Below, piece after piece: positions 41,335 through 58,044 of a stretch of DNA of 64,000 bases. Numbering within the stretch: position 1 is the stretch's first letter; each line of letters starts with the position of its first letter. The DNA lies in IMG/VR virus record IMGVR_UViG_3300026097_000008, positions 64,001-128,000 of that record; one strand, given 5' to 3'. The translations under genes and the position numbers were made by a program. Under the pieces are notes generated by a model. That model searched no databases and was not told the DNA's origin. It saw only the letters and a program-made list of their open reading frames with translations. The stretch is from a virus.

Positions 41335-41820
41335 TTAGATTGCTGTAAGAATAAGCACGTTTTCAGCAGAGTCGTTATCAACATACCAAGTATACTGGTT
41401 GTCGTCGAACCCTGTAATCTTACGTCCTGAAATTTTCTTTACAAAGACTTGAGTTCCTGAATCAGTTCCTACAAATCCACGTAGTACCATTTCGTTATTA
41501 CCAATGCCCGACGACCCGTCATCATCCACAAGTTTACATACTCCTACGCCGTTAGCTTCTGAATATACTTTGAATCTACGAGCACCTTTTTGTTGTAAAA
41601 TATAGCAACTGTTTGGTCCATCATCTTGCACATCTACCGCTGCTGTGCTTGAAACTTTAGCTTTGTACACTGGAATGTTATATCCTTTTTGACGATCTGT
41701 GCTTGCAGATGTAGTATCAAATCCGTGGATATTACGGCCGTCTCCTGTATCAGGGTATCCTGATGTGCTTGTTGTTGATCCTAGTGGACCGAAGTTCTTT
41801 TTACCTAGTGGTCTTCCCAT
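41335..41820 (-). CDS. Hypothetical late protein (possible head decoration or neck protein)
   Basis: MGRPL..K.FG N-terminus and YILQQKGARRFKV; strong AAGGAG RBS; downstream of a late promoter. Confidence 0.6.
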   Translation of the reverse strand: MGRPLGKKNFGPLGSTTSTSGYPDTGDGRNIHGFDTTSASTDRQKGYNIPVYKAKVSSTAAVDVQDDGPNSCYILQQKGARRFKVYSEANGVGVCKLVDDDGSSGIGNNEMVLRGFVGTDSGTQVFVKKISGRKITGFDDNQYTWYVDNDSAENVLILTAI

Positions 41821-41837
41821 TTGTTTTCTCCTTTTTA

Positions 41838-41912
41838 AGAAGTCCGATGCAGGTTCTAGCTGCTACGCTGTGGGTACAGCATAAGTCCGCCTCGCGGCAC
41901 ACTATCTGACAT
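41838..41912 (-). ncRNA. Candidate structured 5' leader (multi-stem)
   Basis: Follows late promoter GATAAATA (41916-41923). GUC.GAU/AUC.GAC closes GCC-GCGA-GGC, GCUGU-ACCC-ACAGC and GCAG...CUGC, ending just before the RBS. Confidence 0.5.
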
Positions 41913-41924
41913 ATGTATTTATCA

Positions 41925-41963
41925 AAAGAGAAAAAAGCCCGACACAGTTAAGCATCGGGCTTT
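41925..41963 (-). terminator. Rho-independent terminator
   Basis: AAAGCCCGA...TCGGGCTTT stem, extendable by G-U pairs on the minus strand, followed by TTTCTCTTTT. Confidence 0.8.
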
Positions 41964-41965
41964 AT

Positions 41966-42176
41966 AAAAAAGTGGGTGAAGGACTTGGGTTTACCTCCAA
42001 CTAAGCGCCTAGATACCTTTCATCGTTAACACTTAGAACCTTGCTCTGTCTAGTATGACAGTGTGCGTACTCCTAGTCTCCTAAGTCTACGCCGGGCACT
42101 ACCCCTAACAAGTGCGCTTATCCTCTCTAGAAACAGGATTATTAGCGCCAACCCTTGTAACAACGTCTTGCTACAG
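41966..42176 (-). ncRNA. Candidate independently transcribed structured ncRNA (~210 nt)
   Basis: ORF-free and GC-richer than its flanks, bracketed by a sigma70 promoter and a terminator. At least six stems are visible (see findings). Confidence 0.65.
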
Positions 42177-52483: not shown

Positions 52484-53782
52484 TTATCCAGGATCTCCTG
52501 AACGCATAATTTCTTTTGCTTCTTCTTTTCCGCGCTTATAAGCAGCTTGCATTTTTGGATTTGATTTAATAAAGTCTTTAATAATTGCTTTTGCTTTGTT
52601 AGGATTTATTGCATTATTCTTGTTTTCTGTATAGGTTATACTATCTCTTACAATATCTCCTGCATCGTCGGCACCGGCTATTCCCCCTAACCAGTCTAGA
52701 CGTTCGCCAAACCATTGTTGAGTTCCGTCAACTGCTAGTGCAGTTCCTAAAATTCTTGCAGGGTTCATTAGAGGTCCAGACATGTTGTTTTCTAACCAAT
52801 CATTAATTCCTAAAGATTCAAATAACTGATACAATGCCATAGTGCCGCCTACTACAAAGGCACCGCCTGCAACAAGTGATAATATAGCACCAACCCCGCC
52901 AGTGCCTATAGAAAATCCTGTAAGCAAGGCGAATGCTGTCCATCCTCCTGCTAGTACAATGCTTATAACAGCTTCAACTATTAATTGATTAAATCTTTCT
53001 ACAGCTTCTAAATATGCTCTACTTACGCCTGGTGTAAGATTACCGTTTTCTAAACCTGTTAAAAATGCTTGGCGTCCTGCTTTATCAACATTATTAGCAT
53101 CGTTTTTTATAGCTCGTAAATAAGCATCCAGTTGATCTTCGAAAGCAGATATATTAATTGCAGAATTTAAAACTACAGCAATTTTTGTACTAAAAAGTGC
53201 CTTAAGTGTTGAAGCTACACGTGATCCTAAAGCGTCTAATATTTTTCCTAATAAACCTTTTGGAGGATCGTCTGGAGTATCAGGAGTATCTGGTTTAGCA
53301 GTAGGCTTTACTTTATCATCTCCAGGACGTACATCTTTACCAGCAGCCGAATTGCGAATACGTTCTGCTTCTGCATCTGCTGCTGCAATCTGTGCTCTAG
53401 TATATGATTGACCATTTACCTTAATTTTTCCGTGTCTAGACAACTTTCTTTGTTGGCTTCTACTAAGACTATCACTTGTAGGTGTGCCAGGTTTAACACC
53501 TGCTTTTAATTCACCAGGATCTTTAGGAGTATCAGTAGGTGTTGCAGGACCAACTTTAGGAGCATCGCCTTTAGGCTGATCTACGATTGGAGTTGGCGCT
53601 TTTGCACCAGGCAACATTTCCTTAGCTCGTATTTCAGCAGCATATCTGTTAGATGCAATAGATGTTTTTCCATCAGGAGCAGTAATTTTTATCTGTCCGT
53701 CATCAAGTGTATCAAAAGAAAATCCTTGAAGTGGTCCTTTTTTTACAATAGTTTTTGCTTCTGTTATTTGATATACCTTCAT
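52484..53782 (-). CDS. Late protein with predicted transmembrane helices (possible ejected internal virion protein)
   Basis: MKVYQITE N-terminus, Pro-rich linker and hydrophobic Gly-rich segments (AVISIVLAGGW..., GVGAILSLVAGGAFVVGG); ATAAATA at 53808-53814. Confidence 0.6.
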   Translation of the reverse strand: MKVYQITEAKTIVKKGPLQGFSFDTLDDGQIKITAPDGKTSIASNRYAAEIRAKEMLPGAKAPTPIVDQPKGDAPKVGPATPTDTPKDPGELKAGVKPGTPTSDSLSRSQQRKLSRHGKIKVNGQSYTRAQIAAADAEAERIRNSAAGKDVRPGDDKVKPTAKPDTPDTPDDPPKGLLGKILDALGSRVASTLKALFSTKIAVVLNSAINISAFEDQLDAYLRAIKNDANNVDKAGRQAFLTGLENGNLTPGVSRAYLEAVERFNQLIVEAVISIVLAGGWTAFALLTGFSIGTGGVGAILSLVAGGAFVVGGTMALYQLFESLGINDWLENNMSGPLMNPARILGTALAVDGTQQWFGERLDWLGGIAGADDAGDIVRDSITYTENKNNAINPNKAKAIIKDFIKSNPKMQAAYKRGKEEAKEIMRSGDPG

Positions 53783-53817
53783 AATCGTCCTTCGATATTG
53801 TTAAGTATATTTATGTC

Positions 53818-54388
53818 TCAACTTCGTTGATCCAAGTTTTCGCTATCGCTCAAACTGTTTACTTCGTAATTAATTATGTGATATATTATTTGAAACGCAT
53901 TATTACGAAGTAATAATGTTTAAGTTTCATGTAGATTGTTTCAGTCAGACGGAACCTGTTACGGTTCCATCTAATCTCAAAAATAGCTTCATGTGAGTTC
54001 GCCACCAGCCGAGACTTGGAAGTAGGTGTTTTCTGCTACACAATGGGCTCTGACCTTTCCCAACCTACGTCGACATCACATAATGCGCATTTATTTGCAC
54101 TTTATCTGTAAAAATACAAGTTAAAGTGCAAATGATTGCACACTATGCTACCTTCCGCTTCGTTCCTGTTGCTAAGAAGTTTTTGTGTGTAATTTGCAGT
54201 TTTTCGAATGACAGCAATTCATCCTATGTCAATACGTTGGGCATATGGTTCGAACCCTCAGACTCACTTCCATTTTTCAGGATACTAGGATCTACCTAGG
54301 GGAGTGTCTCAACATGTTACGTGTGCTCCGATCAAGGATGCTTTTTCCACAGCGGTATTACAATCTGGCCCGCTAACCTTATGTGCTG
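53818..54388 (-). ncRNA. Candidate large structured ncRNA and/or replication-origin region (~570 nt)
   Basis: The longest ORF-free stretch in the window. It has many stems whose imperfections become G-U pairs on the minus strand, and a cluster of C-GAA-G mini-hairpins. Confidence 0.55.
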
Positions 54389-54625
54389 TTATATGCTGCC
54401 TTTTGGTAACCATGTAACAAATTTGCCGTTGCAATCGTTACATATTACTTTGCCTGCGTGTGGGCCTAAATCTAACTTTATAACTTGCCAGTTGTGATTT
54501 TCGTGGATGCCTAACTTGATATCTTTCTTAGGTTTTTTCTTTTTCAATTGATTGCGTTCAATTGCTTCGGCATAGTGATCTATCTTATCGTATTGATTAC
54601 GTTTTTGATGATTTAACTTTGCCAT
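54389..54625 (-). CDS. Small basic Zn-ribbon protein
   Basis: Lys-rich N-half and GPHAGKVICNDCNGKFVTWL (H/CxxC). Confidence 0.6.
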   Translation of the reverse strand: MAKLNHQKRNQYDKIDHYAEAIERNQLKKKKPKKDIKLGIHENHNWQVIKLDLGPHAGKVICNDCNGKFVTWLPKGSI

Positions 54626-55043
54626 GTTCTAAAAGTGCCGTCCTAAGTTTTTCTGACCCGCCTACTCTAACATTAATAATACCATTGTAGTATTCATCTG
54701 TTTCAAGTACACGCCTGTCAAATTGTTCTCTTGCCTCTATGTAGGACATTTCGCCCCTACCTTTACATAGGTATAATATTTCTCTTGTGAAGTTTTCTGG
54801 GCCTAGTGCTGCAACGTCAGCATTGAGTCTATCAGATGATCCCCAATAGTCTTTCCAATCGCTTTCTTTTGTGCCGCGCCTTTTATTTTTCTTGCCTTTG
54901 AGTGGAGGTTTGGTAGTTTTAAATTTTGCAAGTTTTTTGCCTATATATTTTTGCCCAGTAGTTAGATTGGTTATGAGATAAACAAAACCTTCGTATTCGT
55001 CTGGTATTGTTTCTATTACTTTGCCTTGATAAGTCCACTCCAT
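54597..55043 (-). CDS. GIY-YIG (Seg-like) endonuclease
   Basis: GFVYLITN....KYIGKK, YWGSS, F.REIL, conserved E and YYN. A stand-alone catalytic domain with no long DNA-binding tail. Confidence 0.8.
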   Translation of the reverse strand: MEWTYQGKVIETIPDEYEGFVYLITNLTTGQKYIGKKLAKFKTTKPPLKGKKNKRRGTKESDWKDYWGSSDRLNADVAALGPENFTREILYLCKGRGEMSYIEAREQFDRRVLETDEYYNGIINVRVGGSEKLRTALLEHGKVKSSKT

Positions 55044-55067
55044 GCGTGTACTTACCGATTGCCTATG

Positions 55068-55265
55068 TTATTTGCTTTCTATCTTGGTTTGATGCTTTTC
55101 GTGTATTTCTTCCATGCGGGCCTTTGCAAGTTCTCGTATTTTTCTTAACCAACGCCTTGCTTCTCTGTGTGTTCGCACACTATTTCGAGCCTCAAACTTT
55201 TCGTTTGCCTTAAAATAGGCCATGTATGCCTTTGTTAGTTGATCGTGTGTATCGTCTTCAATCAT
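55068..55265 (-). CDS. Small basic helical hypothetical protein
   Basis: 65 aa; TAATG overlap with gp46. Confidence 0.6.
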   Translation of the reverse strand: MIEDDTHDQLTKAYMAYFKANEKFEARNSVRTHREARRWLRKIRELAKARMEEIHEKHQTKIESK

Positions 55266-57037
55266 TAATCTACAATGTCTATGTCATTTGCATATGACGT
55301 AAAGCCATTCTCCTTCACAACTTTCATAACATGATTAACTCTTCCAACTAATTCGTCTTTGTGCGAGATTAGATAGACATTTTTATCACGTTCGCGCCCC
55401 ATTTTCTTAAGGACGCTTAGTGCATTTTCTACACCAGCGGTATCCATACCGCTATCGATAAGTTCGTCAATGAACAGTAAGTTAATGTTTTGATATAAAC
55501 TTTCCCAAACATCTCTAAATGCAAAGCTCATACCTAATATAAGTCTGTTGCGCTCACCACGACTCAGATTATCAAAGTCTAGATCCTGACCTAACTGTGT
55601 AATTTCAACGTTTAGATCATTTTGGAATACAACTTGATGCGGCAGACCCAAACGATCGAGATAGTATGTAAGTCTATTGTTTAGATATGCGAGATTTTGA
55701 TCAATAATTTTCTTACGTATAAAACTATCTTTGTTTGTAAGAAGTTTAAGCAAAAATTCTTGGTGTTCCTTAAAGCTTGTAAGATCATTTACAGGCATCC
55801 AGTCAATATCTTGTAGTGCAGTTTCTGTCAGATCGTTAATTTGTTCTTGATAAGGATCTGCTTCTGTTTGCTTTGCTTCTAATGTTTGTTTTAAACTATC
55901 AACATTCTGTCTATGTTCGTAAGCTTCTTTAGCAGTTTCATAAAATGTATTAGGACGTCCGTTGATATCGCCAATTTCACCTAATCCTGCAAGAACATCT
56001 TGTAGTTTTGTACTAACTTCGGTTTGATATGCTATTGCATCGTTTAATTCTTTAGTTTTTCTAGACAAAATTTCTTCTTTTTTGTCTGCGTGAAGCTCTT
56101 GTCCGCAAGTATAACATGTAGCATCGTCAAGATTTGAGATGTCTTTTTCTGCTTTTTCAACACTTTTATCAGCACGTAATAGTGCCGAGTCCAGTGTGCT
56201 TTTTTCCTTATTAAGAGCCAAAATAGCATTGTTCATTTCTGTCCAATTAGACAGTTTTTCGTGTGCTTCTAGCTCGGCATCAATATCTAGTTTTTCTAAT
56301 TGTGCAATACCCTGTGATAATTTTTCACAATCTTGCTTCTGTTTAGATTGCCAAGCACGTTGTCTACCTTCTAATGTGCTAATGCTTTCATTAATTTTTT
56401 CATTAGCTGTTTGAATTGCATTAATTTTTGCAGTTTCCTCTGTGATTGCTTCTTTGGTCACACGAACTTGTTCTTTAAGTGCTTCTGCCTTTTCTGTAAG
56501 AATCGTAATACCTAACAATTGTTCGATAATAGCACGTTGATCATTTGCTCGCATACTTAAGAACGGCTCAGTGTAGGTATTAAGTGCAACAATATGCTTA
56601 AACATATCGTGACTCATGTTTAGTAAGTCATTAATAAATTCTTGTGTTTTACGACTATCGCCTTGCGATTCATCGATCATTTCTTGTTCTTGATCATTAA
56701 TATAAAACTTAAGAACGTTAGGCGAACGTCCTCTTTCAATACGATAATCTTGTCCATCTTTCTCAAAATGCAAAGTCACTAACATTCCCTTGCTATTTGT
56801 CTTATTAATAAGATTATTACGCTTGATGTTAGTCAATGCAGTACCGTATAATGCATACGATAGTGCATTAATAATAGTTGTTTTACCAGTACCATTGCGG
56901 GATCCGCTGTCGTCTCCGCCTTGATCTAGATTTTCACCTAGCACAAGTGTTAATTGTTCTCTATTAAAGTCAACAGCTTGAGTTTGATTGCCCACGCTCA
57001 TAAAATTCTTGACGGTAAGATCTTTAATTTTTATCAT
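55265..57037 (-). CDS. gp46: Recombination endonuclease ATPase subunit (gp46 / SbcC / Rad50)
   Basis: KNFMSVG, Walker A NGTGKT, Zn hook CYTC, signature LSRGE, Walker B LLFIDE and ISH. Confidence 0.93.
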   Translation of the reverse strand: MIKIKDLTVKNFMSVGNQTQAVDFNREQLTLVLGENLDQGGDDSGSRNGTGKTTIINALSYALYGTALTNIKRNNLINKTNSKGMLVTLHFEKDGQDYRIERGRSPNVLKFYINDQEQEMIDESQGDSRKTQEFINDLLNMSHDMFKHIVALNTYTEPFLSMRANDQRAIIEQLLGITILTEKAEALKEQVRVTKEAITEETAKINAIQTANEKINESISTLEGRQRAWQSKQKQDCEKLSQGIAQLEKLDIDAELEAHEKLSNWTEMNNAILALNKEKSTLDSALLRADKSVEKAEKDISNLDDATCYTCGQELHADKKEEILSRKTKELNDAIAYQTEVSTKLQDVLAGLGEIGDINGRPNTFYETAKEAYEHRQNVDSLKQTLEAKQTEADPYQEQINDLTETALQDIDWMPVNDLTSFKEHQEFLLKLLTNKDSFIRKKIIDQNLAYLNNRLTYYLDRLGLPHQVVFQNDLNVEITQLGQDLDFDNLSRGERNRLILGMSFAFRDVWESLYQNINLLFIDELIDSGMDTAGVENALSVLKKMGRERDKNVYLISHKDELVGRVNHVMKVVKENGFTSYANDIDIVD

Positions 57038-58044
57038 AGTTCGTTATAAATGTCCAAAAGTGTTTTCTTGTCGTAGTTAGTAGTGTCTAATGCAGATATT
57101 TCTCCTGCAACAATCTGATCAACACTTTCAAAGTGCTGAATGTCTAATTGTGTCGAAATTTCTTCCATTTGTTTTTGCGGAATAAGACTTATCTCTCTAC
57201 AGTTGTATTGTCTAATGAATGTCTCTTTGATAAATTGTGCTTCTTCATAACTGATAGGCTTATCAATAGTGACACGTAGGTACATTTTAGGTTTTATAAT
57301 ACTTTCGATATTATCTAGTAAATTGCTTAATGCTATAGTTCTGTATTTAGGACAATTAGGCCAGTTAATATATTCAGGTTCCTTGCCGTTTTCGCGATCA
57401 AGGATCATCATACCACGCTCGTCGTCTCCAGCATCTGCATAGTTATGGGGAAATGCATTACCTATATAGTGTACTTTACCTTGTTTTTGCCGCTTGTGAA
57501 AGTGACCACTGAATACATATTCTTGATTTTTAAAATGTTCTACTTTTAAATCACCATGATCAGGCATTTGCACCATAGCGTTCATGTAAAAGCTAGGAAG
57601 TTCAAAGTGACCAAACATGTATTTGGCTTTGATCTTTTCAATCTTCTTCCATTCATCGCCTACTAGCCACGGAACAAGACACACGTCGTCTTCTTGATAA
57701 ATTTCATCAACAAATGTAATACCTGGAATATGTTTTGCAAATGCAGTTGAATTTACGTCACGCTTGTCTTTGTAGTATAAATCGTGGTTGCCGTCAAAGA
57801 AGTAAAACTTTTCAAAAGCAGAACCAAGTTTTTCCATACTACGAATGGTTGCATCCATAGTCGTAAGGTTAAGACTGTTGCGATTGTGATGCCAATCGCC
57901 ACAAAAGATACCAGTTTCACAACCATTGGCTTGTGCTTGTTCGATAAACCAGTCGACAAATTCTTCGCAATCGTCGTTGTGTACACGCGAGTTGCCTTTT
58001 AGACCAAAATGGATGTCTGTAAACACCGCAGCTTTTTTAAACAA
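57034..58044 (-). CDS. gp47: Recombination endonuclease nuclease subunit (gp47 / SbcD / Mre11)
   Basis: Metallophosphoesterase motifs DIHFG, GDWHH, GNHD, GHFE and SGHFH; TTG start. Confidence 0.92.
   Translation of the reverse strand: MFKKAAVFTDIHFGLKGNSRVHNDDCEEFVDWFIEQAQANGCETGIFCGDWHHNRNSLNLTTMDATIRSMEKLGSAFEKFYFFDGNHDLYYKDKRDVNSTAFAKHIPGITFVDEIYQEDDVCLVPWLVGDEWKKIEKIKAKYMFGHFELPSFYMNAMVQMPDHGDLKVEHFKNQEYVFSGHFHKRQKQGKVHYIGNAFPHNYADAGDDERGMMILDRENGKEPEYINWPNCPKYRTIALSNLLDNIESIIKPKMYLRVTIDKPISYEEAQFIKETFIRQYNCREISLIPQKQMEEISTQLDIQHFESVDQIVAGEISALDTTNYDKKTLLDIYNEL

Follow-up and report, generated by a model that had tools for sequence, protein, structure and literature searches.

The question raised by this locus is what is encoded in a long stretch of phage DNA that has no evident protein-coding gene. 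The window analysed comprises 64,000 nucleotides (nt), corresponding to bases 64001-128000 of the 155-kb IMG/VR virus contig IMGVR_UViG_3300026097_000008 (CheckV completeness 44%). Its source is an uncultured marine giant phage, for which the nearest cultured phages, judged by gp46, are the jumbo myophages PA5oct (48%), then Phosso and Atu_ph07. The genes of the minus strand run in the order gp47 (57034-58044), gp46 (55265-57037), an open reading frame (ORF) of 65 amino acids (aa; orf65), a 148-aa GIY-YIG nuclease (54597..55043), a 78-aa ORF for a putative Zn-ribbon protein (zn78; 54389..54625) and, after a gap of 606 nt from the zn78 stop (54389) to the next start (53782), an ORF of 432 aa. 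An initial annotation of the sequence had noted an ORF-free stretch following the Zn-ribbon gene, and the gap indeed contains no ORF of 60 aa or more on either strand. Its GC content is 41-44%, compared with ~35% in the flanks. The minus strand of window positions 53891-54401 encodes a large non-coding RNA with a stable fold, which belongs to an uncatalogued family. As delimited by conservation the RNA is ~510 nt in length, running from a 5′ AGGCA box to a U-rich tail past a terminator-like hairpin, and it is present as a single copy in the 155-kb contig. The locus as a whole is probably best explained as an uncatalogued large RNA gene that forms the tail of the gp47-gp46-nuclease transcript, and whose product acts in trans.

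Homologues of 330-470 nt are found in more than 300 IMG/VR, JGI and Tara contigs, and fall into two sequence types, A and B. Exact-motif scans located type A at no fewer than 120 loci in IMG/VR and at least 120 in the JGI and Tara metagenomes, and type B at 120 or more loci in IMG/VR; 19 additional type B pattern matches were chance matches. Type A, which includes the window, has long and short 5′ domains, while type B has three sub-variants. Anchoring on gp46 gave 80 related loci (gp46 identity 81-93%), nearly all with the GIY-YIG gene. Those with enough downstream DNA carry a copy of the gap with 65-88% identity (blastn), beginning at the GIY-YIG stop codon. Neither the 78-aa nor the 432-aa gene is present in any of the 80. 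Many IMG/VR and JGI assemblies stop within ~100 nt of the element, suggesting a conserved core set in hypervariable flanks that break assembly graphs.

The initial annotation had proposed an undescribed large structured phage RNA in the sense of the upstream genes, and both the conservation and the covariation described below support this. There is no match to any Rfam 15 family, GOLLD, ROOL, HEARO, group I and II introns, RNase P, tmRNA and known ribozymes included; a covariance search of the window element returned only matches of generic miRNA hairpins to the long hairpin Pb, at scores far below threshold. No match was obtained on searching Rfam with the relatives L041, L076, L026 and L201, ARAGORN found neither a tRNA nor a tmRNA in the element, and a blastn search of 50,697 cultured phage records gave zero matches. 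PA5oct has neither the nuclease nor the RNA. Literature searches covering 8.4 million papers and preprints found no description of the element. Our verdict is that this large structured RNA family is real and new. RNAs of bacteria and phages that exceed ~300 nt with such a density of conserved structure are rare, and most of those that have been solved are ribozymes, ribonucleoprotein cores or self-assembling particles. The family abounds in metagenomes from marine, estuarine and fresh waters, its carriers are giant myophages with uncultured close relatives, and the hundreds of natural variants are sufficient to model the fold.

In comparison with shuffled sequences (20 for each strand) the minus strand folds with z = -4.9 and the plus strand with z = -3.4. 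RNAalifold applied to whole-element MAFFT alignments gave inconsistent structures, so the helices were defined by hand and then tested. Covariance model R1 describes a 157-nt core (helices Pc, Pd, Pg and Pf), to which 100 distinct sequences were aligned. In this alignment, which is fitted to the model, 88.4% of cells are paired, compared with 72.2% on shuffling (a value of 88.4% was reached in none of 500 shuffles) and 32-48% with slid partners; both-sided changes are found in 16 of the 23 pairs. For the 5′ domain together with Pa, a plain MAFFT alignment of 44 sequences is 95.4% paired, compared with 84.8% shuffled (0/500) and 31-48% slid, and 15 of 33 pairs have changed on both sides. There are at least 12 covarying helices, divided between a 5′ domain (L1-L5) and a 3′ core (Pa-Pf). 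When the two sequence types were pooled, a brute-force search for covarying columns was swamped by the single split between A and B.

Starting at the 5′ terminus, the RNA begins with the conserved 25-nt box AGGCA...CACAUAAGG (54377..54401), overlapping the end of zn78 in the window and, in most relatives, the final codons of the GIY-YIG gene, its stop included. This is followed by the L1 hairpin (AGCGG/CCGCU, 54351..54374), which is 99% paired with a conserved loop of 14-15 nt, and where the only changes are alternations of A-U and G-U. The short L3 helix (GUG/CAC, 54321..54350) surrounds the variable hairpin L2 (54325-54341). The middle pair of L3 is UA in 32 sequences and AU in 12, and all five pairs of L2 exhibit both-sided changes. 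L4 (54226..54315) is a long-range helix, AUGUUGA/UUGACAU, that is 98% paired, with pairs that alternate as CG 22/UA 22, GC 24/AU 17 and UA 26/CG 13. It encloses a lineage-variable branch, where 54233-54308 is an expansion specific to the window phage. The CUAGG/CCUAG stem of the initial annotation lies inside this insert and is unsupported; so is its long-range GUGAGU/ACUCAC pairing, in which the GUGAGU arm belongs to the window-only insert and ACUCAC to a conserved single-stranded box. The 5′ domain ends with the L5 hairpin (GGAUGA/UCAUUC, 54206..54224), 99% paired with a conserved AUUGYUG loop and three pairs changed on both sides.

The core begins with hairpin Pa (CUUCU/GGAAG, 54152..54179), closed by a conserved 12-nt loop AAYAGGAACGAA. 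Its two strands occur as 20 distinct complementary pairs; 4.75 of the five pairs are formed, compared with 3.85 when partners are shuffled, with 13 occurrences of G-U and none of A-C. Pb (54080..54146) is the long hairpin, 67 nt in the window and 13-118 nt in relatives, where it is often a GNRA-capped mini-hairpin; 13 of 25 Pb tetraloops are GNRA. Its perfect 12-bp core AUUUGCACUUUA/UAAAGUGCAAAU and the two G-U pairs in the outer stem are as first described, but the outer stem has 10 bp rather than the 11 claimed. The strand then passes through the junction GAUGUCGAC into Pc (GUAGGU/ACCUAC), which surrounds Pd (UGGG/CCCA) and the variable Pe (54022..54077 including the junction; two helices, 92-93% paired). 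The nested Pc and Pd stems had been recognized from the window sequence and are present at 54022-54068. Within type B the Pc strands AGAG/CUCU change to AGAA/UUCU, AAAG/CUUU, CUGC/GCAG and GAGC/GCUC. Pd has a conserved 11-nt loop, from which GGUCA could form a pseudoknot with UGACU; this is compatible with 97% of sequences but all the changes are one-sided, and the interaction is unproven. The mini-hairpin Pg (CCAA-GUC-UCGG, 54009..54019) is weaker, 74% paired with a third pair that is A-C in 56, G-C in 28 and A-U in 21. Finally Pf (53947..53972), formed from AGAUGGAACC/GGUUCCGUCU as originally proposed, covaries with both-sided changes in six of nine pairs, becoming UUCGCCC/GGGCGAA and CUUUGCCC/GGGCAAAG in type B. 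Two further candidate pairings were discarded. That of junction GUCGA with UCGGC was dropped, type B2 giving no support, and an AGAUU/AAUCU pairing around Pf was rejected since only one of its sides varies, the opposite one being invariant.

Throughout the element conserved blocks alternate with hairpins that vary in sequence and length while retaining their pairing. Junctions and loops are invariant, the tips of the hairpins are expandable, and length variation, with insertions and deletions of 13-118 nt, is restricted to the hairpins. G-U pairs far exceed A-C, several pairs of Pf, L4 and L5 being mostly or always G-U, so that the reading of mismatches as wobble pairs on the minus strand alone, made from the window, extends across the relatives. 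The confinement of insertions and deletions to hairpins, the GNRA loops, the 3′ hairpin and the strand asymmetry of wobble pairs together indicate a minus-strand transcript, and speak against both a coding region and a signal in double-stranded DNA. A purely DNA-level signal with no functional transcript, such as single-strand hairpins, iterons or a pac site, could also exhibit the asymmetry, as G-T versus A-C in hairpins of one DNA strand, and identical direct repeats in the element resemble iterons. C-GAA-G loops, one of which lies just downstream, are moreover very stable in DNA. The enrichment of GNRA, the long-range helices (L4 spanning ~85 nt and Pc ~40 nt), the terminator-like 3′ hairpin and an orientation that always matches flanking transcription make this the least credible of the explanations considered.

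The most unusual feature of the RNA is a pair of heptamer boxes. Box 1 (ACUC-ACAUGAA-G, 53987..53998) and box 2 (AUCU-ACAUGAA-A, 53925..53936) are single stranded and located one on each side of Pf, and they remain identical to each other across lineages. Among 103 type A sequences, position 7 of the two boxes is A/A in 86, U/U in 13 and G/G in three, with one exception, and the strongest mutual-information partner of that column is position 7 of the other box. In type B both boxes are GAAUAAU. Watson–Crick pairing of the two heptamers was considered and rejected, as CAUG/CAUG is possible in type A and fails in type B. Since the boxes are identical and not complementary they point to one reader of both sites, and we suggest that a single sequence-specific partner reads both heptamers. 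Covariation by identity rather than complementarity is unusual, and is directly testable.

The size of the RNA, its many helices, invariant junctions and GNRA-capped peripheral hairpins are typical of ornate RNA species, and it could be a ribozyme or a homo-oligomeric RNA-only particle. GOLLD and ROOL are known to form RNA-only cages (bioRxiv 10.1101/2024.12.08.627333). The conserved palindromic words GUCGAC and CAUG could mediate self-pairing, and the same phage carries a manA RNA. Set against this, no ribozyme or ornate RNA in Rfam is similar at E<=10, there is no evident substrate or cleavage site, and type B has AAUA in place of CAUG, a palindrome that is thus not conserved. We consider a catalytic or self-assembling role unlikely.

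How might the RNA be made? No sigma-70-like site was found upstream of it on the minus strand. The 5′ box has no further copies elsewhere in the window, so its assignment as a general promoter was rejected. The strand on which genes are encoded switches ~4 kb upstream, at the end of gp47. With no sigma-70-like site, a unique 5′ box and this strand switch, the RNA looks like the terminal part of a leftward gp47 operon. We infer that it would lack a promoter of its own and be the last element of a gp47-gp46-orf65-GIY-YIG(-zn78) transcript. Its conserved 5′ box overlaps the stop codon upstream, and transcription probably ends at a terminator hairpin that directly precedes the late promoter of the following gene. 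The terminator-like hairpin (53898..53918) has a C(UUC)G triloop, its reading as a cUUCGg tetraloop being wrong, and precedes a U-rich tail. A hairpin of at least 5 bp is present in 198 of 241 distinct tails, as 51 distinct stems with a mean dG of -7.0, compared with -2.7 for shuffles; five or more U nucleotides are found in the next 10 nt in only 59% of tails. A metagenome scan for RNA-sized contigs, which might have hinted at expression, found none.

Upstream of the RNA, AGGCA boxes recur with ~25-nt spacing, ~9-fold over background (1.6 per 95 nt vs 0.18), in the window (54397-54470, minus strand) and in relatives L201, L330, L340 and L378. These repeats sit in differing coding genes and non-coding leaders alike.

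The RNA always lies directly 3′ of an ORF on the same strand, with its 5′ box overlapping the upstream stop codon, and might be a cis-acting 3′ untranslated region of the nuclease operon that stabilizes or processes the mRNA or controls translation of the upstream gene. A same-strand ORF also precedes it in all four alternative contexts, at ~50-65 nt (L330, L340 and L378) or ~230 nt (L201). The element is retained behind unrelated genes (GIY-YIG, PDDEXK_15, zn78, DUF6552 and a 108-aa ORF), and its 330-520 nt, at least 12 helices and invariant loops far exceed the needs of a stabilizer. A role in cis is therefore distinctly unlikely.

Beyond the terminator-like hairpin lies a trailer (53807..53869) that is conserved in types A and B. 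It contains a C-GAA-G mini-hairpin (53859-53869), a hairpin D1 with tandem G-A pairs (53835-53856) and a hairpin D2 (53818-53830), the latter two with compensatory changes seen by eye in 27 sequences. Past these is a late-promoter-like AUAAAUA (53807-53815) for the next, hypervariable gene. This arrangement raises the possibility of an RNA-primed replication origin, where the transcript would form a lasting hybrid, or pass its 3′ end to the replisome, in AT-rich, hairpin-bearing DNA past its end. The AT-rich spacer with three conserved mini-hairpins (C-GAA-G and GA-tandem) is directly downstream of the RNA, the cumulative GC-skew minimum is ~4 kb away (contig ~122 kb, window ~58 kb), and the identical boxes would permit pairing with template DNA in two registers. 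The skew minimum coincides, however, with the gene-strand switch in the gp47 promoter region, which is a simpler explanation than an origin. There is no linked initiator, primase or helicase gene, and T4-type phages replicate mostly by recombination. An origin is an improbable explanation.

The neighbouring genes bear upon whether the RNA is tied to the nuclease. The GIY-YIG gene, the usual upstream neighbour, is directly upstream of the RNA in 232 of 238 informative loci (those with enough upstream DNA) among the matches listed, divided as 118/121 for type A in IMG/VR, 68/68 for type B and 46/49 in the metagenomes. Its product matches the catalytic domain SegE_GIY-YIG (PF19835, E = 2.5e-35) over residues 3-123 of 148, with no second domain, and phrog_447 (E = 4e-39). 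In L122 (1517-2071) and L157 (5250-5765) the slot between orf65 and the RNA is occupied by a PD-(D/E)XK nuclease of family PDDEXK_15 (PF24608), a case of non-orthologous replacement between small nucleases. A complete RNA with no GIY-YIG gene is found in L201 and in the related L330, L340 and L378, the unrelated neighbours encoding a glycosyltransferase, a methyltransferase, DUF6552 and ClpP. Conversely, GIY-YIG homologues are present in Melnitz (70% identity) and S-SRM01 (51%), whose complete genomes give no match to R1. Insertion of genes between the nuclease and the RNA is frequent, with zn78 in the window and others in L039, L058 and L128, and the 25-nt 5′ box is retained downstream of every insert, in duplicate here. 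zn78, whose product had no match in Pfam and PHROG searches, is a strain-specific insert found in one of ~320 related loci among the matches listed (metagenome contig L390) and absent from all IMG/VR relatives. It is a passenger at an insertion hot spot.

It had been proposed that the RNA forms a complex with the 148-aa and 78-aa proteins. In such a ribonucleoprotein the RNA would guide or activate the minimal GIY-YIG nuclease together with the Zn-ribbon protein. The adjacency of the genes and an enzyme with no DNA-binding tail are consistent with this. The strain-specific occurrence of zn78, the replacement of the nuclease by another fold in two loci and its absence from four, and the enzymes that occur without the RNA all speak against it. 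Homologous loci do reveal covariation of the helices, but no variable guide-like segment accompanies them; variation is found in the hairpins Pb, Pe and L2 and in the branch within L4, and the RNA is conserved at both ends, with the AGGCA box at the 5′ end and heptamer box 2 at the other. Furthermore, we know of no GIY-YIG enzyme that is RNA-guided. The proposal is very improbable: the RNA neither guides the GIY-YIG enzyme nor serves as its cofactor. With regard to linkage, adjacency is the rule in this clade, yet it is obligatory in neither direction, so that the RNA is partly unlinked from the nuclease in relatives. This corrects a tempting misreading, in that an RNA-guided system cannot be deduced from the proximity of a nuclease gene and an RNA.

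What the RNA does in trans is a more tentative matter. It may act as a folded scaffold or decoy that presents its two heptamers to two copies of one partner, a proposal to which we give somewhat less than an even chance. This partner might be either a dimeric protein or a nucleic acid, and two copies of it would explain why the boxes change together and stay identical. More doubtful still, although possible, is that the family constitutes a functional class not previously seen among large phage RNAs, in which the heptamers engage two copies of a partner, or template DNA in two registers. If so, its activity would be without precedent among catalogued RNAs; it might, for instance, prime the replication of giant marine phages, or sequester a defence nuclease or a factor of the host.

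Several points weigh against a trans-acting RNA at the tail of the operon. The ends of the RNA, its processing and its abundance are deduced from sequence, and the U-tract following the terminator is weak in the window. No complementary partner of the heptamers was found within the RNA, and the covariation by identity amounts to ~3-4 independent events, the U/U class looking like a single clade. That a nuclease gene, of one fold or the other, almost always lies beside the RNA could yet point to a functional link. The IMG/VR and JGI sets were summed in counting that adjacency and may share loci, and the contigs are fragments, so that a nuclease missing from a locus is not proven to be missing from the phage.

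The gene downstream of the RNA (52484-53782, minus strand) is replaced among close relatives by unrelated ORFs of 199-523 aa. It is a variable late-gene cassette with its own promoter. The 432-aa protein of the window has no relatives in IMG/VR, and a few were found later in metagenomes. Elsewhere in the window (41818-42173, minus strand) a manA RNA (RF01745, 78.6 bits) adjoins a freshwater-2 RNA (RF02980, 73.1 bits); with the large RNA, the phage carries at least three structured RNAs. The large RNA is also present in L325 and L326 (PBPT01000016.1 and PBPT01000082.1), contigs of 335 kb and 153 kb from one marine metagenome-assembled genome binned as Candidatus Neomarinimicrobiota. These are probably contigs of a giant phage that may have been mis-binned, and possibly provide a hint of the host.

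Comparison with known systems places the RNA more closely. As in the T4 td/I-TevI group I intron, a GIY-YIG gene adjoins a structured RNA in a T4-like phage. However, there is no interrupted host gene, the flanking ORFs are complete and unrelated, there is no match to RF00028, and the nuclease gene lies outside the RNA and encodes a conserved tail-less protein. A large structured RNA next to a nuclease gene also recalls HEARO/omega-RNA with IscB (RF02033) and the TnpB reRNA, but here the nuclease is GIY-YIG (PD-(D/E)XK in two loci) and not RuvC/HNH, the RNA has no guide segment and is outside a transposon, and RNA and nuclease each occur alone. Like ColE1 RNA II and the T4 oriF/oriG transcripts, a long folded RNA ends at an AT-rich stretch bearing hairpins, although unlike them no promoter of its own is recognized. 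The Polynucleobacter-1 motif (RF01718; PMC2864571) is likewise an RNA of aquatic metagenomes; it gave no match at E<=10 in 641 nt of the window, nor at E<=1 in four relatives. The closest parallels are GOLLD (RF01998) and ROOL (RF03087). Their sequences and structures do not match that of the new RNA, which is smaller than GOLLD, is not located beside tRNAs and has two identity-locked single-stranded heptamers. Yet like both it is several hundred nucleotides long with many covarying helices and invariant junctions, is borne by phages and is known mainly from metagenomes. The new RNA resembles GOLLD and ROOL in kind, while being a member of neither family.

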